A stretch of DNA of 64,000 bases from Octopus vulgaris (lineage: Eukaryota), in the NCBI GenBank assembly GCA_951406725.2, contig OX597828.1:14198001-14262000 (forward strand). The letters run 5' to 3'. Positions 2,061-27,500 of this stretch are shown here, piece by piece. The position numbers and the translations under genes were made by a program. The notes beneath the pieces were generated by a model. It searched no databases, was not told where the DNA came from, and worked only from the letters and a program-made list of their open reading frames with translations. Position 1 is the stretch's first letter, and each line of letters starts with the position of its first letter.

Positions 2061-2248
2061 TCACTGAACTTTTACACAGAATGGACTGCCAGGGATATGA
2101 TCATCGCCCCATTTCACCATCAGCATATATTCTCCGACTTCCTGCACGAGATAAGACACATTGTACTGGTTATTTCCAAGATGCTTCACCACTAATTCCT
2201 CACAAGGTCCTTTGGGTCCTCGCATACCAACGAACATTATATTGACAC
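2061..2248 (-). CDS. FLNA: Filamin last coding exon (Ig24 dimerisation domain) with TGA stop
   Basis: Hand-translated [62 protein letters not shown]; matches the FLNA C-terminus VKWGDEHIPGSP. Confidence 0.96.
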
Positions 2249-3362
2249 CTGCAACAACAGAAGAGAGAAAACAAGTTTAATAGTGTTGAAACCAACTATG
2301 CTGGAGAGTACCCTACACATACAAGCTTCATACCATTCTGAATATTTCCTGGAAAGAACATCCTATCACACACACGCACAAGGGAGAGAGTGTTAATCCA
2401 TTAAATCTACTCCAGTGCTCGTCTAGTACTTCACCAACCTTGGATGAAAAGCAAAGTTGACCTCAACAAGATTCGAGGTCAGAAGATCTATTTATTTAGA
2501 CAAATGATAGAAAAATGAAATTAATGACATTCATTACTTAACCCTTTCGTTACTGTATTTATTTTGAGATGCTCTGTGTTTCTTTCAATTACTTTAAATA
2601 TAACAAAGAATTTAGTAAAATAACTTCATTATCATTAAGCTAGTGTTAGAAACATAAATTGTGACTAAGGTATGGTGGAAGATTTTCATTCAAAACTCAT
2701 GAAAACAAGACCTTTGTACTACAGAGCCAGAGCTGGTTTCAGCTGGGTTGGTAACAAAAGGGTTAAAAACCACTACAATTGATCTGATGCATTCTTGCAC
2801 CTGTAGTTCAAAAGTGCACAGTTATTTATCTTACATCCCACATGTAGAATGCACTTCCTTAGGTGATTGCTTAAATAAGTTCTTCATTAGATACTCTTGC
2901 ACATCTAGATACTCATTCAGCATTCTACAAGGTTTTCACAAGGATCTCTCTTAAATTTACATATCTCTGAATCATCATTTCAGGCCATTTTTCCATGCTG
3001 GCTTGCTCAATTCAACAGGATCCTCCAGTGAGTCAGATATAAATCCAATATTGGTGCACAGTGCAGTTTTCAATGTATAAATGTGCAAGGGTCCATATAA
3101 TATACACACATTACACATGCATATTTATGCTTGTGCATTAATTACAGACATATGTCGTGTTTTCCTGTCATTACCGCCCCTCTCCAACATTTTCCTAAAT
3201 CTCTTTGTCATTCCTTCAATTCCTCACTCTGGCCCTTTTTATTGACACTGGTTACTTCCCCATTTCCCGTCTTTCTCACTAATCCCAATATATTAATCAG
3301 TTAACTTTCTTCTTCCAGTTCTCTCTGATGAAAAAACCGACTTCATTCCTTCCTCACAGTAC

Positions 3363-3421
<59 letters not shown>

Positions 3422-6400
3422 CAGTGTTCTCATTTGTTTTACTAGTCACTGGTTTCTTTGGATTCTATTGTTTTACTATCCAAAAGATGGAGCATCTTTT
3501 ACACACTTATGGAAACCAGAAATAAGAACTATTTCTTAAGAGAGACATAAGCCAAAGAGCAAGCTTAAAAATCGTCCACAAAATCTGTGGCCCTCAGCTA
3601 ATGTTAAAAATCATATAAAGTGAAAAGTGACAAAGTACTTACCAGCATTGGTAGTATCAATGGTGAAAGTGTTAGCCTTGCCACGAACTGCACTGTTTAA
3701 TCCATTACCACGAGCAACAACTTTACTGGGATCAGACTGGTATTGCTGTACACCACTGAAGCGAGTAGTTGTGCTGGTTTTAGTGACAGTCTCTACAACA
3801 ACTGAAGCTTGCTCATGGAATCCAGAAGCATGGCCATCACCTAAAAACAGAAACAAAATGAAAATTTTAAAACATTTGCGATTTAAGTTTACTACATTGC
3901 ATATAACACCTACATTGTTAACAGTTTTGGGATTTTTATATATGAAGGAAACAACAAAATTGAAAGCTTGGATGAGCTCTAACGATTTAGCATTCAGTCT
4001 GCTGAGTCAAATGGAATTCTTAATTTATTCACCATTTTGAATAAATCCCACATTATCATGTAGCTTCAAGGTTTTAATGATGTCATTATTATTTTCAGAA
4101 TGACATTGTCAGGTAGGTGAGAGATGCCAGATCTGGCCAATTTGAACATAAGACAAGTAGTCCTTTAGCATTTAAGCTAGTCATATCTGGCCTAAATATT
4201 CTAAGGATTCTTCACATCATTACATTATAGCATTGGTGGTTGTTTCTCAATTCACATTTCAATAACTTACTTGTAGCCAAACTCAGTAAACTGAATATTT
4301 AATATCTGAATTTCAAATTATCCAGGGTCTCAATGTTTAGTATAGCTTCTTTTAAGATCAAATCACATATCTAAACAATCAGTTATTCAATCAAAATGTG
4401 CTGCCTGTTTCATTCAGATAATCAATGTTCAATTGTATAATTTAAAAGGTTTTTATCTTTTTTTTTTTTTTTAATACATCACATACACTCCTTATACTTG
4501 TTTAATCATCACTCATTCATGAGAATAGACCCGATAGCTTATGCCATACTTTTAGTAGCTGTTTCGGTTACCTGTTTAGTTGCAAGAAGACACAAACACT
4601 CTTGGCCTTCCCATCCTTCATTCAATGGAAAATGAAAGATATAACAACTGGAAAGGGAGAGAGTGACACCAGCAATGTGAAATGAAGTGCTTTTACTCAA
4701 AGACATATTGACCAATCCAGGAGCAAAAAGAAAAAAAAAAGGGTCCTTCTCAAGTTGTACCAACTCATAAGGGCTGGTTTCCTGGTGCATGCATCAGAAT
4801 TTTTTATTTGGAACATAACCCTTTATTTGATGCAAAGGCATACACTTTTCTCATTCCACTCTGTTTTTCATGGCATTTTTCACTTCAGTTGATTTTTTTT
4901 TTTTTACCAATTTTTGTGGAAGAAGGCAGTGGTTAATGCAATATTGTTAACTAGAGGTTCTGAGTTCAATTCCAAGCAAGACACTATATATGTGTATGTG
5001 TTAGTGGAAGTGTGTGGCTTAGTAGTTAGGGTGTTGTACTCATGATTGTAAGATTGTGGTTTCAATTCCTGGACTGGGCAACACATTGTGTTCTTGAGCA
5101 AAGCATTTCATTTCACATTGCTCCAGTCCATTCAGTTTGTAAAAATGAGTTATGATCATAAGCCCAACACACAAGCTACTGGGCCACACACCTTTACATA
5201 GCACATGGCAAAAAAAGATTTTCCTTTTTGCAGATATTTTAGTGCAGAGCAGAACTCAATACCTAGAGAAATGCTTTCAGGAAGTAATTTAAAAAAAAAT
5301 TTTTTTATAATGCTTCAAATTCTTCTTGACATGATATTTAGAAGATGTTAATATACGACAGTTTGAAATACAAAGTTGACCTCTTAAATTTGGCATTCTT
5401 TGGTCTAGCAGATTTTGAATCTGAAACTGGTAATATCTATATATATATATATAAAAAAAAAAAAAAAAAAAAAAAAACTTCTCCAAAACTTTGCATGGCA
5501 GCATTAATATTTGTTTTGGGTTTTGTTTAAGCTTCATTCTAGCTTTGGTAAGACACATGCACTATATCATATATAGTGTATGCCTGTATAAATATAGTCA
5601 TCCCATTTCTCTCTTTCAGAGTCATCCCATTTCTCTCTTTCAGATATATATATATATATATATCTCTGAAAGAGAGAAATGGGATGACTATATTTATACA
5701 CAGGCATCCCTTAAGGGGGCTATCTGTTTTTTGGCATTTTTTCATTGATTGGCAACAGCCAGGATGCAAGGTTGATAGATTTGAGAGAGAAAGAGAAGAA
5801 AAAGAGAGATAGAGAAAAGAGAGATAGAGATAGAGAAAAGAGAGATAGAGAGAGAGAAAAGAGAGAGAGAGCAAGAGAGAGAGAGAGAGCGAGAGAGCGA
5901 GAGAGCGAGAGAGCGAGAGAGAGCGAGAGAGAGCGAGAGAGCGAGAGAGCGAGTGAGAGAGAGAGCGAGAGAGAGAGAGAGCGAGAAAAAGAGAGCCTAC
6001 CTGTAATCTTTGCTTTGAATGGAGAACCAGCAATACCAACGCCACCATAGCGGATATTAATAAGATAGTCTCCGGGTGCTGTTGGTGTGTAGCTGAATTC
6101 ATATCCTTCTTCAACTTCTCGGCAATCTAATTTCACCTTAGATGGGCCTTCAACAGTAACGGCTAATGCACCAGAGCCGGCATTAACTGTGCTAATTATG
6201 AATTTGGCTACTTGACCTACAAAAACGAAATTCAAACCACATTAAGCCTTTCATTTACACTGTAGGTATTTAGCAACAGCTTAATACCTTTGCAACCATA
6301 CATCAAGAAATATATTACCTAGAGGGTTTTAAATTAACTTTTTTATTTTTTGAATGCAAAATTATTAAAAGATGAGTAATTTAAAATGAGCTTTTGCCTT

Positions 6401-8924
6401 ATAAAATTAGGTATGGTCTTAGGTGAATTGCTGTCAAAGAGTTTATTAGAAAGTTAACTGCCATCTCTGAAAATGGACTCCAATGGCATAAAAGTAAAAT
6501 CTACTAAAATATTTTTTTACATTTAAAATGCTATATCCCTGCCCAACACAAACATATCTTAATTTTAGATACATTTATACAAGGTAATATAGAAATTATA
6601 TATTTCATTAAAATATGAAATTCAATTTTGTTTTGGGATTTGGTTTGCCAGATTCTTTATACGAGTTGTATGTTGATGCATATTCTGTTGTGTCTGGGGA
6701 GAGTCATTTTCTTTTTGTGCCTTACAATTTAACACACACACACACAGGTAAAATTTCCAATTATTTCTTATTTCTATTTTCCTAAAATTTTCGTTGTGTC
6801 TTTCAACCTTTTCAATAAGGTGAGTGTGTTAAATTATAAAGCACAAAAAGAAAATGACTCTCCACAAACACAACAGAATATGAAATTTAAATTTTCTGTT
6901 TATTATCCTGAAATTAAATTTTTAAATAATCTGCAAAAATCCTTTAAAATAATCCATATTTAAAAAATTTTTTCATTTAGAATACAAAGTTCCATCAAAA
7001 TTGACCATAACAAATAATATGTTCTTAAATGGATTTAGAGAGAAAAAATTTGGAGGAAACTAAACTGGAAACTTGTTTGAACGAATCAAGAAGTTTAATA
7101 TAGGGACAGGTGTGGCTGAGTGGTTAAGAAGCTTGCTTCCCAACCACATGGTTCCAGGTACAGTTGCAAATACTATAGCCTCACATCGACTGTCTTGCAA
7201 GTAGATTTGGTAGAGGAAAACTGAAAGGAAGCTCATTGTGAGTGGTACTCCACAACTGCTTAGTTTATTTACATCCCCATAACTTAGAGGTTCAACAAAA
7301 AGACCAATAAAATAAGTACCATGCTTTAAAATACAAAAAAAGGTATTGGGTTTGATTTATTCAACTAGAAACACTTGAAGGTGGTGCCCCAGCATGGCTG
7401 CATTGTAATGACTGAGAGAAAAGATTTAACAATTTCCTTCAAATTTCTAGCAAACAGAACTAGCTTCCAAGTCAGAGCCATCTTAGCATCACTATAGGAC
7501 TTCAGGGACTGCTGGGAAACAGCCTAGTGTACCCATGCCTTAAGACAATATTGCTCCAAGTCAAAGACTAATTAGTTACTTACGTGTGCGTCCTTGATAT
7601 AAGCCTTCTCCGTAAGCAGTGACCCTTCCTGGATCAGCATCAACTTTACCAACAAGTACTCTGAAAGGACTGCCTGGGATATGACAACCATCGAAAGTAA
7701 CATGGACAAGGTGAGTTCCATTTTCTTTAGGGATGAAACTGACAGCATATTCACCTTAAAAAGAGAAAAAACAAATTAATAAGTAGCAGAGGTATTTGTA
7801 GTTTGCCTAATTATATAAATATTTTTATAAGCAAAAGGGTGAACCAATATTTTGATTGTCTTAATTCAAAAAACTAAAGATATTCTGAAACGGAAAAAGA
7901 ATAATGAAAAACTTAAACTATAAAAACTAAAGTAATAAATGAGAAACTCTGCAAGTTTATATATAATATAGCACAAGGTTTTAAAATATCTTTAAAGCCA
8001 AAGCTACATGATGTTAAATAGACGAAAAAAGAAAATATTCATTAAGTGCTGGTGTGCATTAAGCAATTTTTCTTTTTGTTTTTACTCGTTGCATAAAAAC
8101 TGTTCACATGTGGAATCATTTACAGGATTAAACAAATATTTTTTTTTTTTAAGTAACAACAAAAAGTAAAACAATATCAAAAGCTTCATTATGATGAAAA
8201 ATATAGCCATGCTGCATAAGATATTACACATTAAAGACAACAAAAACAAGAAAAAAAAAAGAGAAATGATTAATTACTAGCTGTATAACTAAAGTGTCTA
8301 GACCAAAATGCCATTGTATTAACTTTAAATTTTCCTTTTTTTAAAATGCCAAACTATGTATATGTGTGTGAGTGTGTGTGTGAGTGTGTGTATGGGTGTG
8401 TGTGTGTATGTACACACATACATAAAATGAAGGTATACTGAAATATAATTAGGTTAAACTAGATCATCGTTTATATATCTGAATCAAAAGATCCCCAGGT
8501 TCACAGATAATCTCCTGTGTTTAACTGCCACCCCACTCCGCGTGTTGAATCTCCCAATGGCCTAAGATTTTGCTCAAAATAAACTTCCCACAGGAGCAAT
8601 AGAACTTAGTACTGTAGGTTAACAGAGTCTCATTGCAGTGCTGGTGCCTACAGCAGTGAATTATACCACCCAACAAGAGTCTCGAGATGGTTGGTTGATC
8701 TGCTAGAAATATCAGCTAAATCTTACTCAAAAATCACACCAAACCATTTTTGAAAAGAAAGTTGCATTGCATTTTATAATACACTATGCTTAAAAATGAG
8801 CTACTCACCTCCAGGGCTAAACTGATATCAATCAGCCATAAAAGATCTCAATATATAAAGACAAATGGTGCTCTTAGTACAATCTTTGTGAAAGTCAGAC
8901 TTAACCAATGCTACATAAATATTA

Positions 8925-8963
<39 letters not shown>

Positions 8964-11900
8964 AAAGACAAGTCCAGCTTTCTGTCAGACCAATACTTTG
9001 AATTAAAGCTAAAAACTCACTAAAATTTTCTCTCACAAGCCACATTAAATGGTTTTAATTTCTACAAAGTTTTCAAATATCTTGAGAGAGAAAGAATTGG
9101 CAGAGAGAGCGAACAAATACTAATTTATTACCACCATAGAGTATCTAGTGGGGGTACATGGCTTTGTGGTTAGGTGTTGGACTTATGGCTGTAAGATTGT
9201 AGTTTCAATTTCTGGACTGGGCAATGAGTTGTGTTCTTGAGCAAGGCACTTCATGTTGTTCCAGTCCACTCAGTTGGTAAAAATGAGTAATCCTGCAATG
9301 GGCTAGCATCCTATCCAGGAAGGAATATATACGCCCGAGAAACCAGGAAATCAAGCCCTTGCTTTTAGCAGAGTAATGTGGACCTACCCACTAACACGGA
9401 TTTTGTTTTTCATTTGTAAGTCAAAGGTAAAAAAAATATTATCTGAGCTGTTGTATATCTAACAATGGCAGATAGACATATTTAAATTAGTTTTACTTAA
9501 AAAACAAAATTGTAGATAAAATTAATAAACAAAATGTTAATGGTTTAAAATGAACTACAGTTTACTCTAAAGATTGAAACACAGCAGAATGTAAATTTAA
9601 ACAAAAATAAGTGATTATATGTGACACATAAGCAATGTATAAGAAGGCCAAATAAAAATGTACACCAGTATCATGTCAGAGAGAAATAACCCTAATTTGT
9701 GATACATCTTAATGGCGAAAATGAAGTTTTATATATGTGTATATATAGGAAAATAAAATACAAGTTATCTGTATTGAGATAAACAAGAAGTTTCACAATG
9801 TCTGTTTATACACCATGAAGTTATCAGTATGTCTACATACAGTTAAATGTTATGTATCTTTTCCTATATATATATATATATCTTGGTGCATAATTATTGT
9901 GGCTTTTTTCAACAAATTTTATTCAACAAAAATAACATGTAACAAAAACATCTTTAAATGATTATTCTGGAGCATATTCACCATCTACTTCAATTACTGC
10001 TTTCTATTTGCTTGGCAGACAGTCAGACCGTCATTTAAAGAGGTTTTTGTTAAATATTGTTATTGTTTTTTTGAATAAAATTTGAAAAAAAGCTGCAATA
10101 ATTATGCACCAACCCAACAGATTCCATACTTTCAATCATATCAAATCCCGCTTATGCAAAAGAACAAATTAAAATAGCCATCTGTGTATCATACCTAATG
10201 TAAATACATAATGAAACGGTAAATTAACTGTGGTATTTGTCCAGAGATAACATCTCTGATGGATGGGCATGCTTGCCTTTCAACTATTTATATTAAGTAT
10301 GATACAGATATGGCTGTTCATACTAATGACAGGATGTGTTTGTATGCATGCATGTGCATTAATGGTAACAAATGGCAGAAACTATCATCTTTAATTTTCA
10401 ATTAACTATATACATGTTAGGAAACTATGTATAGTTGAATGGTTAAGAAATTCACTTGGTGATTACAAGGTTCTGAGTTCAATTCCACTGCAAGATATCG
10501 TGGGCAGGTGTCATTTTCTATATGCTCAGATTACCTTGTGTCTAGCAAGTGTAACTGGAGAGACAGGAACTGCATGGAGGCCTGTCAGATGGAATGTATC
10601 TGACAGTCAAAAGGTTCAGCTTTGTCATGCCGATTCCATATCAGAATTACTTATATAAGAAAATACTTATGTGTATGAGATACTCAGCCACTTATATGAC
10701 AATTCAATGTACTTGGTAGTTCAGTTAATGGAAAAACTGAAAACATATTGTTAGAAATTCTGGCCAACATCATAGTTTTAAGACCTGTCTTGCGGATGCT
10801 CTGGGATGCATAGTCAGTGAAGTTTCTGGGGTCTCAGAGTTTTGGGTTTTGCCCAGTTGACCCAGCTAGGATTGATCAAGTTCCAGCCAGTATACCAATA
10901 GCAGTAGACAGCCAGCCAGCTCTCTTTATCCCAAAAAGTCACCTAGTGGCCTTCTCTACAGATTCAGCGATAGAATTCATAGTTTCACTCTTTGATGCAC
11001 CAGTAACTCCAAGCCCAATCGGGACACCAATAGATCACGCTATGAGACCTAGGAAGTTGTAAGAAATTGAGCCACAGTATTAACTGGATGAATTAAGCGT
11101 GACACTAGTGGAGAGTATATTAATATTTTTAATAATTAGGTACCTGTACACTATCACCTGGGCCTGCTGTAATCATTTAAATGTGGTATAAAATGTAATA
11201 TAAGTGTGTGTGTGTGTGTGCGTGAGTGTATCTCAAATCTAAAGCAGCAGGTTTAAGGTAGTGAAGGAAGAGGAAATGACTAAGTTGCTGAGGTTTAAGA
11301 ATTTATGACAGATTTGATGATAAGCAGGTGTACAATAGCCAAAATTAATTAACATGATGCAAATTAATGATGGTTGCTAACAAAAATGTTTATATGAAAA
11401 ACAATGCAAAAGTAAAAAAAAAATGAAATACAAATTATGTGCATATACACACGCATGCATGCACATACACACAAAATATAATTTGTGAAAATGTGTCCTG
11501 TAAAGTGATTAAGGTAATTATGTTAATATTCAGTATGTGTAAGTGTGTATATATATATATACATATATATACATATATATATACACACAGACACACACAA
11601 ACATACATACACTTATGTCTGAGGAAGACCAGCATTGCCCATTAAAACTGCTTATAACAGACTCTTTTAAAGTCTACTAAGCTCTTATGCGTCTTTTGGG
11701 CAGACTTTATACAGAAAGAAGCAAATGTGAATATCAGTATGAAAGATGAATGCCTCTAATCTGATATTAAATTTGCAAATCTTCAAGTGCTGCATGTCAT
11801 ACAATCTTTTGTCAGGAACAGACAGAATTCAGCAATTTTTTTCTAACCTGACAGTTGTTGGTAACTAGTGAGCCTAGTCTTAGACATGTACACACACACA

Positions 11901-12060
11901 CACAAATATTATTTATATATATATATATATATATATCTTCAAGTGCTGCATGTCATACAATCTTTTGTCAGGAACAGACAGAATTCAGCAATTTTTTTCT
12001 AACCTGACAGTTGTTGGTAACTAGTGAGCCTAGTCTTAGACATGTACACACACACACACA

Positions 12061-12143
<83 letters not shown>

Positions 12144-12225
12144 TAAATAAAAATATATATATAAATAAATAAATATATATATATAAATAAATAAATAAAT
12201 AAATATATATATATATATAAATAAA

Positions 12226-12268
<43 letters not shown>

Positions 12269-12465
12269 TCGAACTGACAGGACAAATAAAACTCGATGAG
12301 TATACATGCATATTTTTTTTTAATTGGTAGATGTTATAAAAGTGACATAAGGGCCAGTAGTTTCAGACAAAGCACTTAAGTTTGGTCAGTGTTTTTGCAT
12401 GAAACTTTCCACTCTTATGTTACTTTGTAACTTCCACCGATTAATAATAAGTGTGTGTGTGTGTG

Positions 12466-12534
<69 letters not shown>

Positions 12535-12543
12535 CACATACAT

Positions 12544-12574
<31 letters not shown>

Positions 12575-15500
12575 TACTACTATTGAACAGTGAGAATGAG
12601 TGATCAATACTGCACTGGTGAATAAATATTCTTTATTTGTGGGTTACCAAGTTTGCCTCATGGGGGAACATTGGTGCTCTTCTCCAAAATGGAAACAGTC
12701 TTGTTAACCCAAAAATAAAGTGTGGGTGTGTGTATATATATATAATTGTGCTTCATAATAGATCTTACAAAGAGATTATAGAATCTTTAGTTATAAAGCT
12801 CTTCAATTTATTTTCAAGATTATAGATTCCAAGATTATTCTTGGAATCTATAATCTTGAAAATAAATTGAAGAGCTTTATAACTAAAGATTCTATAATCT
12901 CTTTGTAAGATCTATTATGAAGCACAATTATATATATATATACAAAACTAATACCTGAAATTTTCAAGTCTAGGTCTGAGAGATAATGGAAAGCTACAGG
13001 CTTTTTCTCCCTTAGCTAACAGAATTTGATGACACTTGCAGAAAACACCAATAACAATCAAGAAACAAGATTACTGCTCAACTAAAATGATATATACTAC
13101 TGATTATTATTATTATTATTATTATTATTATTTACTGCAATAAAATCAACTTTTGGTTTTTGTCTATCTTGTATGAGATCATATTCAGTAGTAAACATGA
13201 ACTAGATTGAATTCAATAGATTACGTCCTGCCTCTTCAAATTTAGAGTATCATGCTGATGATATGAGAAAACTATTGTTTTTTTTAAGTGTGAATAAAAT
13301 CTAATCAAAATATGTGCCAAAGGCAGAATGAAGTGCATTGTTGCAATGTAAATGGTATTGCAGATCTAATGGAACTGATGCCAGCATGGAAAAAATGTTA
13401 AGAAGCATAACTATGATGAAAATTAAGATATGGTTCCTGCTATAAAATCTTCATTTTCTACTGGAAAATGTATAAATGAGACAATCGTTAAAATATTAAT
13501 GATATATATGTAAGGAATGAAATATTAACCGATTCCTTTTTTAATGAGAAATGGTTAGATAAAAGACAGTAGTAAAACGCTTATTCAAATAAAAATAAAA
13601 ATTAAGAGTTGCTTTATAGGGGAATAAGAATTTTGTGCAAAAATAAAGAATCTGTTTTAATATTTAATTAAAAAAAAAAAATTAAAATTTGCAAAAACAG
13701 ATGAGTGATTGGTAAAATAAAATGAATAAAGAGGTAGGAGGAGGAGGAGGTGACTGCATTCAACCAACTATTCCTGACTAAAAACAGTCAGAAATATGTC
13801 AGAATGGGCCGAAATGTGAGTCTTGTGTCAGCAGTGACAAGGCACTCTTACCTACTCTGGAAGGTAGTGTTTTCTGGGCTGAAGGAGAAAAGTAAGGTCT
13901 TTCTTGTCTAAACATTATAAACAATTTGTAATTTGTTATATTTTCCTTTTAGAGAGCATGACTATTATTGAAATATATTTACAAAACGTTTTTAAGCTAA
14001 AAATAAAACTCATTTGATGTTAGAAATAAAAGTTATTGAAATACATTAAAGTCAACATTTGCTGAAATACAATTTTAGATAATCTTTTTTTTTTTTAGCT
14101 ATTTTTTTTTGTTGCTACTTTCCTATGGCTACAAATACAGTTTTAACCCTTTGAACCAGAGTATGCTTTAGGAGGTACAATTTCATTTAACTATCCCCTG
14201 AAAGATCTAAAAAAACAAGCAGCCGCATAGCTTTAATTGGCAGAAACCATTTTAGTTTCAGCTGTAAACAGTCAGCCATAAACACCAAAGACATATGGTT
14301 TAACCCTTTCATTACTGTATTTATTTTGAGACACTGTGTTTCTTTCAATTATTTTAAATATAACAAAGAATTTAATAAAATAACTTAGTCACAATTTATG
14401 TTCCTAACACCAGCTTAATGATGACTAAGGTTTGGTGGAAGATTTTAATTCAGAACTTTTGAAAACAAGATATTTGTACAACAGAGCCAGAGCCGGTTTT
14501 GGCCGGGTTGGTAACGAAAGACAGACATTTAGCTCATGTTCAGAAAGTTTTGAGTTCTATTCTCAGCCATGTATTGTGTCCTTGAGAACGACTATTTCTT
14601 GTTACTCCAGTCCACTCAGCTGGCAAAAATGACTTGTACCTGTAGTTCAAAGGGCCAGCCTCGTCATATTCTGCATCAAGCTGTGTCTCCCAAAGAACTA
14701 CATTAAGTGTATGCATATTCGTTAAGTGCTTAGCCAATTGCACATTAAATTTCACGAGCAGATTGTTCTGTTGATTGGATTGACTGGGACACTCGTCGCC
14801 TATAACCAACAGAGGGCCAGCCAAACACAAAACCAAGTGACCACCCACTTTTTACATTCTCTGAGGGTATAGTCACATGAAGTCATGCCCACTAAAATGT
14901 ACGCATAAGTTCAAAGGGTTAAATAAGTTGTTAACAAACAAAAAATGGGTGGGGAAAAAAAAAAAAGGGCGGGAAACAACTTACAAAGACCAATACAATA
15001 AAAATAATTACCTTCATTAATTTCATTGACTAAAGCATCATCCTCTACTCCAGAGGGTGAAACAACCTTTGCAAGCAGTTTACCATGAGCACCATTGAAA
15101 GACACTTTGAAGACGGCAGGCTTGTTTACCTAGAAGAGAACAACAAAAACTAATGAATAAAGGTTTTAAATTTTTACAAACTCTTTGACATTAACCCTTT
15201 AGTATTCAGATTATTCTGTTGAATGTAATGCTTGTTTATTCACATTGTTTTGAATTTATAATCTATTATCTTGTAGCTTCGATATTTTGATGATATGTTT
15301 GTTTATTTTAAGAACAACATTATAGGATACATGTGAGAGGCTGGATCTGGCCAGTTTATATATTAAAGGGTTAAAATTAAGGGATGACATCTGGAAAAGA
15401 TCCTTAAACTCAATTTAGTTATTTTCATGAACCTATGCAACACTATGTTCAAAACTAAAATTCATACAAACACATATCCATCCATACATGTATGTATGTA

Positions 15501-18500
15501 TATGATGATAAACCAGATGAAACTTCAAAGAATCAATCATTCCCTTGTAAAAATTAATGTGCTCTACTAAAAAGTATTCAGTAACCCTTCGTTAATATTA
15601 AATTGTTTTTCTGCACAAGCTGATATATAAGCTAACATGAATAACCATGCAAGCAATGACATAAACAATGTGCTTTGTACAGTTTCCATTAATCTTTTAC
15701 TTGTTTCAGTTATTTGACTGCGGCCATTCCTAATGCCAACCAATCCAAGAGTGTAATGGTTGCTTTTACATGCCACCAGCACAGGTGCCATTTGCGTGAC
15801 ACCAGTATCTACCACAGCTGCAATATTGCTTGGCTTGATGAGTCTTCTCAAGCATGGCATACTGTCAAGGATCTCGGTCATTGCCTCCATGAGGCCTAAC
15901 AAATGTTATTTTAATTTTGAGATTAAGAAATTAAAAAGAACAAAGAAAAAACCTGACTGGAATGATTAATATTTTAAATCATAATGCAAATATCAAGTTA
16001 AAATATTTGGGTTCAAATAGGCACAAGCAAAGCTCAAAATTATATCAAACTTCCTCTTTTAGAAGAAGATTGTACAAACACACAAGTTCTAAATATAATA
16101 TTCCATAAACTATTTCAAGACATCTCACAAATATACTACAGACAGAGTCTATACATTGTTGTTTGACATACTAGAAGTAGTAACCAAATTTGCCTCAAAT
16201 CATATGCTTCCATCTTAAAAACAGATGGATATACTGGACAATGTTGTTCAAGACCTATTAAAGAGGAGATGGTCATGGTTGGAACCTCCGTTTACAACTG
16301 AGAAGATGTGGTTATATATATATAAAACCCCTTATTCTGTCAAAGAGAACACAATGTTAGCAATATTACCTGCAATCCTTTCTCTTGAAGAGAATGAACT
16401 GAGAGTTTTTGAGCATCTCCAACACTTGGCGAAATAGCCACTCTGAAAGGTGACTCTGGGATGTGTTCATCGTTAAACTTAACAGATACCAGGTACTCTC
16501 CTGCAAATTATATAAATAAAAATGTCATAACTTGTATCTATAACAGTCAAATTCCAATTGCAACACAACCAAATTATAATTTTACAGTAAGAGATAATTA
16601 CAGAGCAAAAAGAATGAAAAATTTATAAATAAGTAGGATACTGACCAGGCTCAGTGCACACATAGTTCACACCACAAGAACCATCTTTTCTATCTTCAAA
16701 ATCTATTTCAGCTTTAGATGGCCCCTCAACAGCAATAGACAAACCACCAGCACCAGCTTCCCGAGTATAAATGTTGAATTCACCTTTAGAAATAGAGAAA
16801 CAGTTGTTGTATGAGAAGTGTATGAACAGGAGTAAAGAAAGGCTGCTGCAATAATACTGAGTTATTTATGATTGAAGCAGAGCTAAAAGATTTATGTGAA
16901 CTATTTTGGAAGTTAATATTAGATTTTAGATTTTAAGATTTTACATGTCAAGTGGGGAAAAAGAAACCAAGAATTTACAAATATGTAATATTTTGGTCTC
17001 AAAATTATGATTAAATTACTTACAAGGTGAGTGTACTTCTCCTTTCTCTAAGCCAGGACCAGCTGCATGCACTTTGTGGGCTCCGCCTCCAGTAATAGGC
17101 CCAACTGTGAATTCAAAGGGGCTGCCTAAAGACGAAAAATACAAAGAAAAATGTATATATACATAGATCTGGAAATCAAATCTTAAATTTCAAAATGAAT
17201 TAAAAAAATTTTTATTTATTTTTTTAATATCTGAGAAAAATCTAAAATGCTCAAAGAACCTTAAAATATGCTCACCTGGAATATGCATATCTTTGTGCTT
17301 TACACTAACTGTATGGACTCCCATTTCTTTGGGAACGAATTTGATACTATAGTGACAGTCATTTAAGCTAATTACATCACAAACTTCAGTTACACCTGAT
17401 GGGCTGGTTACAGAAGCAGTCATATCGAAAGGACTTGTGCCTATAATGAAACAGGAGAGATATTAATTACATATCTTTATTAAATTATAACACTGAAATT
17501 AACATTAGTAAAATGATAATTTCCTAAATTGAGCATTACATAAATATTTGTTTAAATATATTTTGTCTAAATGTTTTAGAAACAAGAATTAGACAAACTA
17601 GACAATAAATACAGACATTTCAAAGTTTTTTTTTTCTTTGTTTTTCTTACAGCAGGACAATTGCTATACTGCAGTTAAACTATGCTGAAGTTTCTAATTT
17701 TAATTTAAAATAAATACAATTAAGAGACAAAAAAGTCAATGTTGTTAACACACAAGTTTATAAACAATGATGCTTCCATTTATGGTATTGGTTGCCCAAT
17801 AACAAAGAGCAAATGATATTTAATAATGGAGCAGTATAATTTTATCAACTAAGAAAGATTAAATTCTTAAATATAAAAAAGTTCATACAATGAAATGATC
17901 TGGTTTAATTAAGATAATCTGAAATTTGTAACAGGAGGTTGCACAAATAAATAAAAAAATTCTTTGAAAGAAAAATTGCATTTTTCTGTAACTGACAAAA
18001 GATGCTAGTCAGGTGGGAAAAAAAAAACACAAATAACTGTGAAAGCACCATAAAGCTATGGCAAATCTAGGTGATAAGTTAATTCTATTTTCTGCATGGC
18101 GCTAATATAAAAATAAATAAATCAACTTCAGTTTTTTTTCTCTTTCAGCTGCTGTAGATGCGCGAAAATAACTGTGAATGAACGTGTGTGTGTGTGTGTG
18201 TGTGTGTGTGCATTATATACATACACACACACACAAGATAAAATATAAAGAATCCAAATTTTTAGTGTCCAAGTGAAAGGAGGACACTTTTATAGCAAAT
18301 TTATACAGGATGGAAGGATAGAGACAACTGTGTGAACTCAGTTTGAATGGTTGGAGGGAAAAAAATGAAGAGAAGCAGTTCATGATTATGTAAGGATTAG
18401 AAAAGGTGTTTAGTACAGAGTTTAGTGACAATGTGAACGAGTTGAGATACTGAAGGCAAAGAGAAGAAGCTGAAAGTGGTAGACAGAAAGTAAAGCGAAA

Positions 18501-21500
18501 GAACACGAGTTCATTATAGCAGTACAGAAGCAGACAGACAACATTTGAATGGTGGGCCAGAAGTTTTAAAGTTTCAGTAAATCGATAGCATGTGAGAATT
18601 TTCTTATTAGGGTGCAGTTGAAATTTCATGTGTGAATTAAGTCAAAGTGCAACGGGCCACAATCATGGCCATTAGGCACAGGTTGGCAGGCCACAATCAT
18701 GGCCCAGATAGATGCATTTAATTTATGGGCGTTTGTTGGGGTTTAATGTCACTCAAACGCTCCGATACCCACCAGAATGCAAGAGGGCTAATAATTCAAC
18801 TAATGATTTTTCAGATGATGTAAAACTTGCCACCATTATATACTAAGATAGTCTAACTATTTTTAGCTTTTTATGTGTGCATGGAAGTCTCATTTTCATA
18901 AAATGTGCTCAGCAATCCATGCTGCGTAAGTGCAAGTCCCAGCACTTTATGGGTTAAGTAAACCCACAGTGGCCCCTAGTGTTCTAGTGCAGTGCGTATT
19001 TCAGTTTTGTAAAAAAGTAGCAAATCAAAGCTGAAATAGTATGTTCATGACCCTAAAAAGGGAGCACAATTTTGTGAAGCAAACTTAACTTAGAAAATTG
19101 TGAGGTGGGAAGCCGTGTCATAGGATTTGAGATCTACTTAAACATAGTATATTTAGGTTTTGCGGTGGTTTGAAATGTATGTTGTTCTGAGAGTACAGAG
19201 GAAGCAGAGTTGCAAATTTGTTCCTTAAAATGTCAAGTGTTTCAAATCTCCATTTCAGAAATTTCAGCTGTTCAAGGATAGGCAGAACTAACAGAAAGTG
19301 TTGACATTTCATATGAACAAAGTCATTGTGATAAAATAAGGGAGATAAGTAAATAGGCCATTGATGGAATTGAAGGTCAGAAAGGAATCTGATATAGAAT
19401 CAATAGAGTGACAATAAAAGAAAAAACTTGTTTACACAAGGAGAACTTCTCAGGAACTTCTCAACTCGGTTGTAATGGAGCTTTATGAACAGGCAGTTGC
19501 ATCCGGTTTTCATACCAGACAGAACAGAAGACTTTCAATGAGGTCAAGAGCAGTAACATTGCTTTTATTGAAGTTAAGGGCAAGAAGCCACTGATGTGAT
19601 ACATGAAAGTGGTCAAAGGGAATTTAGTTTTCTAGAATCAGTACAGATTGGGAAGAAATTAAATGATGCAGTAAGGATTGTTTATAATTTTATAATTATC
19701 CCATCAATTTCGAGTTGTTGGATGGATATAATAGATCAGTAGTAATCAGGATTGGAGAAATTGCCATAAAATGATAAAAATTTGGTCAAGATATGGGCAA
19801 AAATGAGCAAGTGTCACCAATTCCTGACACTGTTTCAAATGAACAAATGACAGTTAATCAAATGATGTTGCATGTATTTCATAACTGTATAATAGTGACA
19901 CACCAGATCACATCAGTTGAATCCATTTGTTGGATGCATCACAATAGCTGTTGTCTGCAATTTCTATTTTAACCGTTTACTGCCTATATTTAAATTAATT
20001 AATTTAGAAATTAATCAAAAATCTGGGAGAGTGGAAATTTAGAAAATAAGTTGATTTTCATTTATGTCCAAAACAGCAGCTGAATAAGGAAATAATTTAA
20101 CAATAGCATCTTACATTAAACTATGATGACAGATTTTAATATGAAACCTTGAAAACAGGCAATCTTTTATAACTGAATCAAAGATGAATTCAGTGGTGGT
20201 GATATTGAAGGATTAAGCTTTCTTTGGCCAAGAGTAAATTCCTTAATATGTAGTCAATATAAAATTGACAAAATATTTTATCAATTAGCTGATTTTGAAC
20301 AAAGATGATGTGTTTGTTAACTAAGTGGAAAAGATTTAAATATAGACAAACTTCATTTTATTTATCTTTATAGACTTAATATTTATATTTTGGGATTATT
20401 TTAAAACATGGTGATCATTCAGAATGATTTCCAACCAGTTTTCTTCAAAATTTTCCAATTGTTTTTGACTAAATTAGACTTCTATAAAACTGACTTTTAA
20501 AGGTAAAAAAAAAAAAAAAATAGTAGCCTTTAATTTGAAACTTTTAGTAAAATTAAAGCATCTAAATTGTTAGCAATTGAAAGCTTAAAATATACAAGGA
20601 ATAAAAGTGAGCATTTGTATAAATTTACTCACAATATTAACACAGTACAGTAATAAGCAATTTTATATGAGCAACAACGCAAGATTCATAGAAAACAATA
20701 CAATAATATTTAAACATTGTGACACTTTAGTACAGAAACAAAAAGACAAAACAAAAAAAAATGACAAAAAACAAAAACAAAACTAAGTTTGGTTATTTAT
20801 AGTCAATATTATTCAACATTTTCACATTGACAAAAACAGACAAACAATTAAAACAAAAGCTAAACAATGAAAGTTCCAATGCTGTGCAGATCAGAACAGT
20901 AAACACTAACATGACAATCACATAGCTGGATTCCTCAATACAAAATGGCCAATATGGTCCAGATACTGATATTACACACCACCAAAAGGTAAAAAGAGAA
21001 AATAATTTATTGTAGATTTTTCTACAAAGGTATTAATATTGAGGAACCCAAAACAATTTTCTGAACTCGTGCATAAAAGGATACATGCAGCCTAATAACG
21101 TTATTAGAGATGTATTCTTTTACACATATAGAACACCATGCATCTATTGTTTCTGACAATGCAAAATAAAAAATAAAACAATTCTTAACCAGGACTAATT
21201 TAAATCATCTTGGGTGGTCCCTGCACTTATCAAGGGAGTGCTGTTCTTGCTCAGATCTTCCTGAGTCAGAGGAAAAGCAAGTCCCAGTATGTCAGAGGGA
21301 CAAGTGGGTGCAGAGAAAGCCAAGAGAGTCAGCAATGCAAGATTCAAAAGCCTTAATGGATGGATGAGAGCTTGCTCAATTTGTGAGTTTGATGGATGAT
21401 CAGTGACTCCTTGTTCAGTTCATCCACCCTAGTAAGGGTGTTCATTGATTCTATACAGGCCAGGACGAGAACCTGGAGTGGCATCATGAACATGAAATTG

Positions 21501-24500
21501 ATAATAAAGATTACATGAGCTAATACAGAAATGGATTAAGATAAGCCAGGGATAAGACCAACCGAAGAACATAAATATAGACCAACTAATAGTACAATAT
21601 TAAGACAATATGAATATAGACCAGTGCTCCACAACCTTTTTTTCACTTGCAGTACACTTAAATTCTTTTCAAATTCGGTAGCACACCTGAACTAAAAATA
21701 TAAAAGTATACGGGAAAAAATATTTAGGTTACACTATGGCACACCTAGCAATGTCTCACAGCACAGTGTGCCGCAGCATACCAGTTGCAGAGCACTGATA
21801 TAGACCAACAAAATATATATACATGTACGTATACACTACAATGTTAAGACATAAAGGGACAAAGCTAGTTGCGACATGCAGACAGAATATACTTCTTGCG
21901 TTACAAAGTATAACTACATTACTTACATAGCCACATCCTGTAGAAAGCTTTTAGTAATTAGATATAGACAATCAACTAGAAATGTAATTAGACAAGATTT
22001 TGCAACCACTAATACATGAAGCATTTCCCAAACCACTATACTTCATATCTAAGAATTTAAGAATTAGTAAAAACACAGATAAAAATCAGAAAAAAAAAAT
22101 GCTATAAAAATGATTGATATAAAAGATCAGTGTCTGTGGAAATGGTAAAGTAAGAACATCAATGACTCATGTATTTCTATATTTCTTTCCCACAGGTGTT
22201 TTGTGTAAAAATATATTTCCTATATTCAGTGAGTTATTTTAAAACGCAACAGATAATAAAAGTATGAAAGATAGGTTTAAAGTAGAAGCTGCAAATGAAT
22301 TAAGTGTCCAAGATTAAACTATACTGCTGAATAAATTTTTTCTTATATTCATCAAATATTAGATTTTATAATAAATGTTTATTTAATATTTCTTTTGGTG
22401 GTAAATAACTTCCCTTTCTGAAGCGAGAATATATATATATATATATATATATAAAAAAAAAATTAAAAAAAGTAGCTAAATGGATTTTACATCTGGGAAG
22501 GTATTTTATTTCTCATGCTCTGCTAGAATGATACATTGGAGTATTTTGAAAGAATTTCTAGAATATTTATCTAAAATGTAAATACATAAAGAAAATGCAG
22601 TGTCATTGTTGTAAACAAACTAAAACAATATAAAATGTGATAGAATCAAGTTTGCTTACAAATATATTTTTGAACCTCCTTAAACTTTATTTGGAAGAAA
22701 TTTATAGCAAACATGGTTTTTAATCTATAAGAAATAGCAGATATAAGGAAAATGTGGTATAGCTGCAAAGTGTGTATGTGTGTGTGTGTGTAGTTTCAAA
22801 ATACACACATGTTAGCATGGTCACAAAGTACAAGTGTGTGAGTTTGCTGTCACAAAATATGAATGCGGTGCTCCAGCATGGCTGCAGTCAAATGATTGAA
22901 ACAAGTAAAAGAGTCACATGTGATAACAGTGTTTGTGTATATGCAGTGACAGTACTTGTATGTGTGTGCATGTGTGACAGTACATGTGTGTGTGTGTGTG
23001 ATGACAAATCCATCTTACACACACCCATGATGAAATGCTCAATCATTAAAATTGACGTAAAATTTTTAACGATTTCTTCCCGAGTTCAATCCCAATGTTA
23101 TCCGAGACAATAACATTGTCATTATATGGTTATTTTATGTTTATTATATCTTCATAAATTTATTTTCATCTCCTACTCCTAACATATAATTATAATAACT
23201 GCACTATAATTCTAAATTATAATAGAAAAGAATAGTTGGAAAATGCAGTTAAAAAAGTAAAAACAAACCTAATTATTATTAATCCAAAATAAATTTTAGA
23301 ACTGGTCAAATGTGAACATAAATACTTCACTAAAATCTTGCAAACATCAGAGTGTTTGCAAAATAAAATGTCATTTTATTTTTTATGGATAAAATGAAAC
23401 CCCTTAAGACTTAAGGATAATAAAGAATAATTATACTACTACTATTACTACTACTACTACAAGTAGTGATACAGAATGTCTTACCAACTGATTTCTTTAC
23501 ATCCTGATTGTTAGTAATGGTAATAATATTGTGTGTGTCCCATTTTACATAGGGTATATAATCTGTAACAACTTTGACAGGAGACGAATAAGACTTTACA
23601 AGAGTAATTGGTACTGTACGCATTTTGAAAGATTTTGTTTCTTTGTGGGTTTCTTATTTGTTTTTCCTTTGTTATTTGTTTTTTAAAATCACAGAAACAA
23701 AACAGTTCTTTTGGGGTGAAAAAGAAAGAACCGATATAAATATATACAGTACTTCTAACTGTCAACAAGTCACAGGCAAGGAAAATGTAATAAAAAACTA
23801 GTTTTTGTTGTTGAAGAAGCTAAACGAAACTGAAATAGATTCTCTTTCTGGAGAGAGAAGTGAAGAATGAGCAATATAAGCAGTAGCTGAAAGCTTAAAA
23901 AGAAGCTGTGCTGGCTGAGAGAAGTTACATTATTGCCCTCCAGCAAGGTGAGTAAAAATATCATTTCAGCAGCAGCAGACAAGTATCTCTACCTTACTCC
24001 CCCTCCCACCCACTCTTGGCACTGATAACAAAAATCTTAAATGCCAGATTTCACAATAGCTGGAAGTTGTCTTCAGAAATAGAGCCAAAACTCTTTTCTA
24101 TGTACTGACAACATTTTTTTGGTATGTTTTATTAACTAACAGCAACTGGACTGTTAACATGGAAAAAAAAAATCTACAAGAATGAGGAAAACTTGATTGC
24201 AATAGAAATGGCATGGAACTAATTAAATTCTTGGTATTGTGTGATCACAATTATTTTTTCTTAATAGTAAAAGTTAAAAAAAAAAAAAAAACTGAACAAA
24301 CTTAATGCACCAAGTTAGTTTGACAAAGTACTTTTTTTAAAACTAACAGCAACTGGACAAAGTTTGACAAAGTACTTTTTTTAACTAACTTTTTTAACTA
24401 ACTTGACAAAGTACCTTTTTTTAATTAACAGCAACTGGACTGTTAACATGGAAAAAAACTCTACAAGAACGAGGAAAACTTGATTGCAATAGAAATGGCA

Positions 24501-27500
24501 TGGAACTAATTAAATTCTTGGTATTACGTGATCACAATTATTTTTCTTAATAGTAAAAGTATAAAAAAAAAAAAGAACTGAACAAACTTAATGCACCAAG
24601 TTAGTTTGAAAAAGTATTTTTTTTTAAGTGACTTGCAGTTTATGAAGAGAATGTGCATGGGTTAATCTGCAGTCCAAAAGTAATGCTGTTAACTATAGTA
24701 TCAAATATGAGACTTCATGTAGGTACATTATGATGTGGAGGTGAGGATCACACAGTAGAAGACATTAGAACCATAGGGAATTTAATTCAATAAGGTGGAT
24801 TTTTGATTCTTCAAAATATGTGTATTTATATATAAAACAGAGCCAATGTACTAAACACTTAGGATCATCATAGAGTTTTTATATATCTGAAATACGATAC
24901 CAAAGAGTTTCAAAACATTTTGTTCAGTAAATCTGAATCTTGAAGTAGAGTTTCATGATTTCAGAAATGGAACAAAACTTAAAAGGAACCCAGAGACAAA
25001 GAAAGAGAGAGAAAGGGATATAGATAAATATAATTTCTGTTTAAAACACAGAAATGATCATTTTAACATTAGATAAATGGGTAAAAAGGCAATTCAGATA
25101 TATAAAACAGACAATATGAAGATCCAGAGAAAACCGTGTATTGGAGGGTAATAACTGGCTTTAAACATTTTTAAATTTAGTATCAAAAGTTACCTCTGAT
25201 AGCCAAATAATTTTCTGTAGGAAAAACAATGCACAAACATAGCTTTATTGTAAACAGAAAAAAAAAATACATACATACACACATGGAAATACATAACGAG
25301 GAAGAATGGAAACTATCTGAAGTGAAATAACTTTTAAAGAACTTCCAGGGGTGAAAAAATTGTACAAATAACTATTTATCATGAAAAGATGGAGAATAAA
25401 AAAAGTGTAAGGTTTATGTTTGGATGTTCAAAGAACAATAATTTACTGAAATAAATCTTCAGACTTAACATTTTTTTTTTCTTCTTCCTTTCCTATTCTA
25501 TCATTACTAAATATTATTCAAATAAGCCTGCTGGCTATTTGTGACATCAGGACCTGTAAAGATACTGAAAGGCATTCCAGTGATGGCCATCCTTATCTTT
25601 GTAGAAGCATCTAAGATATTCTTTTCTATGCAGCTGGAGATATCACTCGAAAGACTTTTGTAGGATTCTTTTTCTTCTTGAAGGTTTGGGAAAGAATTGA
25701 TTCGATACATTACAAGGAAACTTTCCTTTCATACCATTTGCTTCAGCTTAATCCAGTTTCCTGGCCACCTCTAATTAAGGTGTCCAATATACGAAAAAAC
25801 AGATGAGGCTTAAGTAGTAAGTTCACTTGACTAATAGTAAAGTTCAACTCCATTGCTTAATCCAGATATCATTCAATCTTCTATATAGACTACATGATAA
25901 ACAATGTTATTGGCTGGAGCTGTCATTCAAAAGATTGTTCATAGTGCAAGAGTAATCAGATTGTTTACATTGCAAAAGTAAATGTAATGAAAGTGAGTTC
26001 AATTCCACCTTAAGCTCAAACATACTTAAAGACAACAGAACATCGAGAAGATGAAATTGCTTAAAACAGTAGAAAGAAAGAAAAAAAGATGCTAAGAATC
26101 TATAAGACTTATTTCAGTATTAGTAACACATTAAAAAGGTGTAATATAATTAAGAAATTTTCTATCTAATTTTTCACTTGATAAAAATTTTTAGATTTAA
26201 AAGAGTACTTGATGCTAAAGAGAGTATTACAATTACTGAAGCTGACATTTCACATTTTATAAAGTTTCATGTCTGAAGATCAGAGACATGAAACTAAATG
26301 TGAAGTGTCAAAAGTATTCGTATGAAGCTATTACAGAAGAAAACATAATGGAGCAGGGGTGTGGGGAATCAAGGCACGGTTGGTTTCGCTTTTTAACACA
26401 AAGAATTATAATACAGACACATAGGGATTAGCTAAATCCATACTACTGAGTTGTTTTTTTATATATATTTTTATGAACATCTTTCAAGAACACATGAACA
26501 CACTAGATTATAAATCAGCAAAACATGAAAAGAATAAGTTACCTGGAATTTTTAAACTGAGTTCACATTGGCTTCCTATGTGTGTGATATCAGCAGCTTC
26601 CCGATGTCTAGTAATACGTTCAGTAATACGAGAGGATGGTTCACCACCAATTTTCACACTGAATGGACTGCCTGTTAACAGAACAAGTGAACAACAGGGT
26701 TTTAACAATGAACACAAAGTAATATTAGAACACTAATTTAAAATACTAATTGATAATATGGCACAGATGTGATAGTGTTTGAGAAATTTGCTTTCCAACC
26801 ACGTAGTTTTGGGTTCAGTCCCACTGCATGGCCCCTTGGGCAAGTATCTTCTACTATAGCCCCAAGCCAGCTAGAAGCTTCTTAATGAATTTTGTAGATG
26901 GAGACTCTAAAAAGCCCATTGTGCATGTATGTGCATATTTTTGCATCTCCTACACTTGACGTCATGTGATTGTTGCAAATAAATGTTCATTTCCAATATT
27001 TTATGAAAACATGTTTAGTCAAGAGGAAATATCACTGTTTAGAAACCAGTGACAAATGGCAACAGGAAGGGTGTCCAATCATAGAAAGTCTGCTTCAATA
27101 AATTCCACCTGAAGCATGCAAACATGGAAACTAAGAAACGATATAGATATTTTGTGAGGACTTAATTTTATGTGGTACAAAGCAACTTCACTAGTGTTGG
27201 TGCCATCACAAAATGCATCGCCATAAACTATGTGAAGCAGTTGACTAATGACAAAATAAGTGTTAAGACACTTATTTTGAGAAAATGACAACTCTTAGTG
27301 CAGGTACCATAAAAAAATGCATCTGGTACTCTTAAGAGAGCAGTCGGGGATAGAAAGGCTGTCCAAATTAATTAAATTTCCATCTTCTTACTGCCAATAT
27401 TCTGGTGGTTCTTGACTTTATCAATCACCTCAAAAGGACCAAAAGGCAACTCTGATATAATGGATATAACAAAACGCCATAAGGTATTTTTTGATGCTAT

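Follow-up and report, generated by a model that had tools for sequence, protein, structure and literature searches.

Does the long intron that splits repeat Ig20 of an octopus filamin gene contain a second start of that gene, and what might a filamin beginning inside this repeat do? The question arises in a 64,000-nucleotide stretch of Octopus vulgaris DNA (the window) from a 2.8-Gb genome, with the 3' portion of a filamin gene lying on its minus strand. The C-terminal 475 residues match those of a filamin from the limpet Patella (P0001) at 356 of 475 positions, and the Ig repeats present include the Ig20-21 mechanosensor pair and the C-terminal Ig24, as in FLNA and cheerio. A close homologue of the window filamin aligns to PDB 2J3S, and an actin-binding domain at the N terminus of the full-length gene would lie past the upstream end of the window. 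The host intron extends over 9102 nt (17441-26542, minus strand). High-copy SINE-like repeats, located at about 22860-22915 and 26780-26990 in or beside this intron, have very high depth in all runs. In addition, a tandem duplication with a 287-nt period (24122-24627, 87-93% identical) lies directly upstream of the transcribed exon described below; the idea that it is a dispersed element was ruled out because the duplication is local, with no copies elsewhere in the genome.

Both internal-promoter short filamins and the splicing-out of the masking strand are already known. The open state of the Ig20-21 pair has been studied mostly by means of engineered mutants (fly open-MSR alleles, FLNA I2144E, and strand-A deletions) or in the weakly expressed var-1. 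A preliminary description of this DNA had proposed that an alternative first exon in the intron yields a short filamin in which the masking strand is missing from the outset.

An alternative exon in the Ig20 intron

All or part of the exon stretch is contained in 20 of the 24 listed runs, and 14 of these are small assemblies (43-135 million letters) with 95-100% of its words. We mapped four runs to the window, three of RNA type from three studies (X1, X8, and X10) and one of DNA type (X19). No listed run is recorded as RNA, and X1, X8, and X10 are identified as spliced RNA by their canonical exon-exon joints at depths of 500-1240. The junction 23485->17440, which the preliminary description had named as a check, is found in all three RNA-type runs (depths 5.9, 15.6, and 21.9) and has a depth of 0 in X19. 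This spliced junction is the decisive evidence, and it confirms the exon. Because the three runs were picked for containing the exon, and its words are almost wholly missing from four further runs listed for related studies, the frequency of the junction among runs is not a prevalence. The junction's share of the joints that enter 17440 is about 0.9, 1.2, and 4.2% in the three runs, a level that is rough because contig depth measures expression poorly. An attempt to infer selection from the runs was rejected, since the alternative exon hardly differs between the window and organisms B and E, which are hence uninformative.

Table 1. Features of the Ig20 intron and of the exons joined across it, in window coordinates.
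Feature	Position	Strand	Basis and remarks
Canonical exon, end of Ig19 and Ig20 strands A and B	26543..26671	-	Counterpart of human exon 40; missing from the short isoform; RNA joints, FLNA alignment, and PMC2199218 as far as available
Microexon, 21 nt, in frame, 7 extra residues in the Ig20 B-C loop	25194..25214	-	RNA joints and frame
Longer 5' extension	23900..24100	-	X1 contig; upstream ATGs 23964 and 23930
Possible 5'-UTR intron, 150 nt, GT-AG	23848..23997	-	Donor GTAAGG, pyrimidine tract and CAG; sequence only
ATG-free leader, 276 nt	23624..23899	-	Bounded by the X10 contig's 5' end; likely 5' UTR, with a probable main start near 23900
Coding part of the alternative exon	23485..23623	-	46 codons from the ATG, then 1 nt (phase 1); one genomic copy; joined to 17440 in X1, X8, and X10
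Splice donor GTAAGA, used	23479..23484	-	Joint 17439/23484, CT..AC on the plus strand; RNA-type runs X1, X8, and X10
Shared acceptor exon, remainder of Ig20	17276..17440	-	RNA joints and 521-aa model
Two exons (17125-17024, 16783-16646), most of Ig21	16646..17125	-	Junctions present in RNA contigs
Six exons (16500-16370, 15129-15012, 7754-7584, 6216-6001, 3840-3643, 2248-2061), end of Ig21 to Ig24 and stop	2061..16500	-	Placed by homology and GT-AG sites

Among the joints listed, 17440 is joined only to 26543, 25194, or 23485, and no joint enters the alternative exon from upstream in the X1 and X10 contigs. The contigs reach unbroken to 23899 in X10, to 24100 in X1, and to 24235 in X8, the last against an intron-wide background. 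In X10 a single contig accounts for all of the depth in both exon bins, the flanking bins being zero, and in X1 the contig accounts for the depth of the upstream bin, the next bin upstream being zero. With contigs that stop within the intron, the alternative exon is likely a first exon, though contigs fix neither the start site nor the strand; that the transcript has its own start is, in our judgment, highly probable. The position proposed earlier for this start (23828-23833, with 5' ends near 23830) does not agree with these data, as all three contigs extend past it, while the initiator-like TCAGT motif is indeed present, starting at 23833. A pyrimidine run at 23897-23903 on the minus strand, 3 nt upstream of the X10 contig end, has what we take to be a resemblance to a TCT-type start motif. 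A bacterial promoter scan returned a chance-level score, from a model that is irrelevant for this host.

The preliminary description was mistaken in reporting no pyrimidine tract nearby, since a 94%-pyrimidine tract with CAG ends at 23848. If the possible 150-nt UTR intron (23997-23848) were spliced, both upstream ATGs would be removed, namely 23964, which opens a 64-codon out-of-frame uORF ending at 23770, and 23930, which is followed directly by a stop codon; splicing of this intron is not seen in X1, X8, or X10, whose contigs cross it unbroken. An acceptor at 23847 would also permit an internal poison cassette, a 363-nt exon with a stop after 16 codons that leads to decay or to a filamin truncated in Ig20, with the contigs as partly spliced precursors. 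The strong acceptor-like site and the symmetric exon length are consistent with such a cassette, and so is the description of stop-bearing insertions in the Ig20 region of the human heart FLNB variants var-2 and var-3 (PMC2199218, in the text available). We nevertheless consider it very improbable, because no 26543->23847 joint is present among the joints listed, all three contigs cross 23847 unbroken, and X10 depth is nil both upstream of 23899 and downstream of the donor.

The other sequence features proposed for the exon were borne out. ATG 23623 on the minus strand, in the context TTCAAA-ATG, opens 46 codons plus 1 nt that end at 23485 with the phase-1 donor GTAAGA and join in frame to the exon at 17440; an in-frame stop lies 11 codons upstream of this ATG, and farther upstream no other ATG occurs before 23930. 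When the intron is shuffled, however, 87 of 1000 shuffles contain a phase-1 ORF that opens with ATG, runs for 46 codons or more, and is followed by a GTRAG donor, and as a result sequence alone is only modest evidence for the exon. For the transcribed 415-nt exon (23899-23485), a first ATG that is in frame and open to the donor is seen in 53 of 20000 shuffles and in 0.2-0.6% of intronic windows, the ATG-free leader alone being unremarkable (552 of 5000 shuffles). These figures bear on the proposal that the minor RNA is real but without function, the product of a lineage-specific cryptic promoter, that any protein made from this RNA is unstable because its Ig20 lacks two strands, and that the rotifer and slug cases described below are coincidences of a long phase-1 intron. 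Such an explanation, which we regard as unlikely, is favored by the level of 1-4% of junction depth, by the heterogeneous 5' ends, and by the 87 shuffled introns that carry an ORF and donor of this kind, but it sits poorly with a junction that is reproducible across three studies and with the rarity of an open, in-frame first ATG, here with A at -3.

The predicted short filamin and its known relatives

A ten-exon model has an open frame to the normal stop and encodes 521 aa (55.8 kDa), made up of a new head, the remainder of Ig20, and Ig21-24, or about 4.6 repeats; the first three joints of the model are RNA-supported and the others are placed by homology. The modelled protein corresponds closely to the mini-filamin of ~500 aa and ~55 kDa, lacking the actin-binding domain and Ig20 strands A and B, that had been predicted. 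It has no actin-binding domain and keeps the dimerization repeat Ig24, and the product would be 469 aa long if translation began at the following in-frame Met. Translation as modelled is probable.

When aligned to human FLNA Ig19-21, counting from Ile2144, the junction falls at Glu2168, directly after LKIP. In the available text of the human studies, FLNA and FLNB var-1 are described as skipping exon 40 and losing Ig20 strands A and B (PMC2199218, PMC1948075), the single skipped exon being likely to encode Ig19 strand G together with Ig20 strands A and B (PMC2199218), and FLNA var-1, with boundaries 2125/2168, is reported to have increased integrin-tail binding (PMC1948075). The octopus isoform is therefore like human var-1 in that the same two Ig20 strands are gone and the chain resumes at the same residue, FLNA E2168, after LKIP. 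It differs in that var-1 results from exon skipping in a full-length actin-binding protein, whereas here a new 46-aa start replaces everything upstream. Because the remainder of Ig20 in the short isoform equals that of var-1, the expectation of an unmasked Ig21 is well grounded. Moreover, removal of strand A is reported to give a flexible open pair that binds migfilin (PMC4554727, in the part available). The constitutively open Ig21 of the preliminary description thereby gains a precedent in FLNA/B var-1, which resumes at the identical residue, and by this analogy Ig21 would probably be open if the protein is translated.

The 46-aa head has no homologue detectable by HMMER among 1.84 billion representatives, nor by word search, and an orphan peptide of this kind is also what a functionless RNA might encode. 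A likeness by eye to the head of a Plakobranchus filamin was rejected (E=8), the heads of Rotaria filamins gave no match, and the head has no sequence match to filamin strands. It does contain alternating hydrophobic stretches, at residues 3-9 and 31-37. Prediction of a complex between the head and a homologue's Ig20 remainder plus Ig21 gave 0.02 (mark 0.34) and is not counted as evidence. The hydrophobic stretches lend some support to the alternative that a short protein exists without being constitutively open, with head strands that re-cover the CD face of Ig21, or replace Ig20 strand B, in a re-tuned module. In the legend to Fig. 2 of PMC1948075, the ligands of the CD face are described as having little sequence in common, a point in favor of such a head, although the missing sequence match to filamin strands argues against it; overall, we find this alternative improbable.

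Fly FLN90, with 8-9 repeats (PMC5173320, PMC5521747, PMC11221683), and C. elegans FLN-1C, with 9 repeats (PMC3143143), are described in the accessible text as filamins made from internal promoters. In common with Drosophila Cheerio FLN90/CherA-B and with FLN-1C, the octopus isoform lacks the actin-binding domain and keeps the dimerization repeat (PMC5173320, PMC5521747, PMC5011733, PMC3143143). FLN90 and FLN-1C, in contrast, are abundant and comprise 8-9 complete Ig repeats, neither masked pair being disrupted, whereas the isoform described here, of about 4.6 repeats, has its start within Ig20 and makes up a minor share in bulk samples. Because its start lies inside Ig20 and the whole second rod is absent, the short isoform may work like FLN90 but is not its orthologue. 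A four-Ig fly isoform was considered as a precedent and rejected, the smallest fly isoform described in the available text of PMC5521747 having 8 Ig. In the numbering of PMC5011733, Cher Ig19-22 is the counterpart of Ig21-24, and this fragment is reported to bind the titin homologue Sls (PMC5521747), so that titin-like proteins are a plausible partner class for the short isoform.

A dominant-negative action had also been suggested, and as the main role it would consist in Ig24 pairing with full-length filamin to give one-headed dimers unable to cross-link actin. The composition of the protein suits this role, Ig24 being kept and the actin-binding domain absent, but the role is doubtful, since the isoform accounts in bulk samples for about 1-4% of junction depth, a level that could poison few dimers unless the isoform is confined to one cell type. 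In addition, fly FLN90, likewise devoid of the actin-binding domain, is described as a positive scaffold (PMC5173320, in the text available). We therefore regard a mainly dominant-negative role as quite improbable. A filamin isoform starting inside Ig20 was not found in the full-text literature searched, which covers few subscription journals and excludes supplements, and no octopus-named filamin occurs among the matches listed (120 of 1894) or in two cluster look-ups.

Other putative starts and cassettes at the same point of Ig20

The 57 matches to the acceptor exon include short, C-terminally complete filamins from Rotaria (P0014), Elysia (P0015), and Plakobranchus (P0016), in which a Met-start head is joined at the same residue to the remainder of Ig20 and on through Ig24; many other short matches are gene-caller intron read-through and were disregarded. 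These heads, taken from automatic gene models, are Ser/Thr-rich, 137-310 aa long, and unrelated in sequence to the 46-aa octopus head. Those of Elysia and Plakobranchus are homologous to each other (E=7e-9), and the rotifer head is present in three more Rotaria models (P0178-P0180). We found no paper on the Rotaria or sea-slug models. With no head sequence shared across the lineages, the layout may reflect either convergence or an old origin with turnover.

A metagenome scan gave 49 loci, 44 of which were examined, L046-L050 (weak or partial matches) being left out; loci are called rotifer-like by similarity only. In six of the 44 (L031, L044, L045, L032, L043, and L011) a single exon immediately upstream of the acceptor encodes the rotifer head. 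A match to the strand A/B exon as well was obtained in three of them (L031, plus L044 and L045, which are near-identical), and in all three the head exon lies inside the same Ig20 intron. It occupies 822-1302 in L031 and 1522-2035 in L044, has about 160-172 codons, and ends in a phase-1 donor that is weak (CCAG followed by GTTT or GTTC). In L032 a stop codon directly precedes its ATG. Met1, the open frame, and an aromatic tail are conserved in four lineages with 51-73% identity to L031, a pattern suggesting that the layout can be under selection. This conservation at the protein level also weighs against the functionless-RNA explanation. The slug-type head was absent from the 44 loci examined. 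A screen for an ATG-ORF with a donor in 16 two-exon loci returned nothing convincing and had low power, since the non-consensus donors of the two known rotifer exons caused these to be missed as well. Three rotifer-like loci (L009, L013, and L014) have no intron at the junction, while others have one of 65 nt or 1.1-1.2 kb, and this suggests paralogues that differ in their ability to make the short form.

The most conserved part of the rotifer exon is the tail adjoining the junction, which ends like native strand B, a feature in keeping with a head that re-masks Ig21. Folding of P0179 from its single sequence gave a pLDDT of 38, too low to be usable. With a 20-row alignment the Ig domains are folded, but head residues 1-140 have pLDDT <50 and form no strand, which speaks against re-masking, although the alignment is only 5-7 rows deep there.

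The microexon in the octopus intron is a further alternative at this point of Ig20. Its joints have a depth of 674 in X1, for which no skip joint is shown, whereas only skipping is seen in X8 and X10. About 18 nt upstream of the microexon acceptor is a TGC, an arrangement that we assume to be as in neural microexons of the Srrm3/4 type. At the microexon point, 283 proteins were screened, 140 of which have a short linker and 63 an insert (55 in bivalves, of 10-23 aa, and 8 in vertebrate FLNC, of about 81 aa); further gastropod and nemertean isoforms examined have no insert there. By eye the microexon resembles the start of a scallop cassette, its 7 residues being too few for a statistic. The FLNC insert in Ig20 is described as an extra exon that targets the protein to Z-discs (PMC2192634, in the part available). 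Like this insertion and the bivalve cassettes, the microexon enters in frame at the same Ig20 point, the strand B/C junction. The FLNC and bivalve cassettes are internal, leaving the full-length protein and its strands A and B in place, unlike the short isoform with its new start.

A candidate pre-opened adaptor

The alternative exon, the use of its donor, its frame, the contig ends within the intron, the minor level of the RNA, and the open frame to the stop are direct observations, and from them we propose the following course of events. An internal promoter, probably near 23900-24100, would give a minor transcript that has exon 23485-23623 first. Splicing 23485->17440, in frame onto the second Ig20 exon, would yield the 521-aa filamin, presumably translated from ATG 23623, and this protein would dimerize through Ig24. 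With a head that is probably floppy and a destabilized remainder of Ig20, the binding face of Ig21 would be unmasked without force, by analogy with FLNA/B var-1. Fly FLN90 and Cher Ig19-22 suggest, by analogy, that the product could then serve CD-face ligands or titin-like partners as an adaptor independent of actin. The core of this reading, that the short isoform is a pre-opened, actin-independent adaptor dimer in a restricted cell type, is somewhat better than an even proposition in our estimation. That it has a selected function falls a little short of even.

What is new here is a probable filamin start inside Ig20 that is joined at the var-1 residue, together with the conserved Met-start exon that rotifer-like loci carry in this intron and the two sea-slug gene models that begin at the corresponding junction. 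A wider and tentative view, which we put at well below even chances, is that the filamin mechanosensor has an old regulatory socket in the intron that splits Ig20. Promoters within it in several spiralian lineages (this mollusc, bdelloid rotifers, and sacoglossan slugs) would make Ig21-24 dimers, pre-opened and actin-free, that need no force to signal and form an unrecognized class, and cassettes at the same point (the microexon, the bivalve exons, and the FLNC insert) would tune the full-length sensor by tissue. The present locus offers concrete targets in the form of one junction, one promoter region, and one conserved rotifer exon. If the reading is true, a natural isoform consisting only of the unmasked module and the dimerization repeat would be a built-in force-independent form of filamin, and its recurrence in rotifer-like DNA suggests that animals may switch the Ig21 site on by transcription, and not by tension alone.
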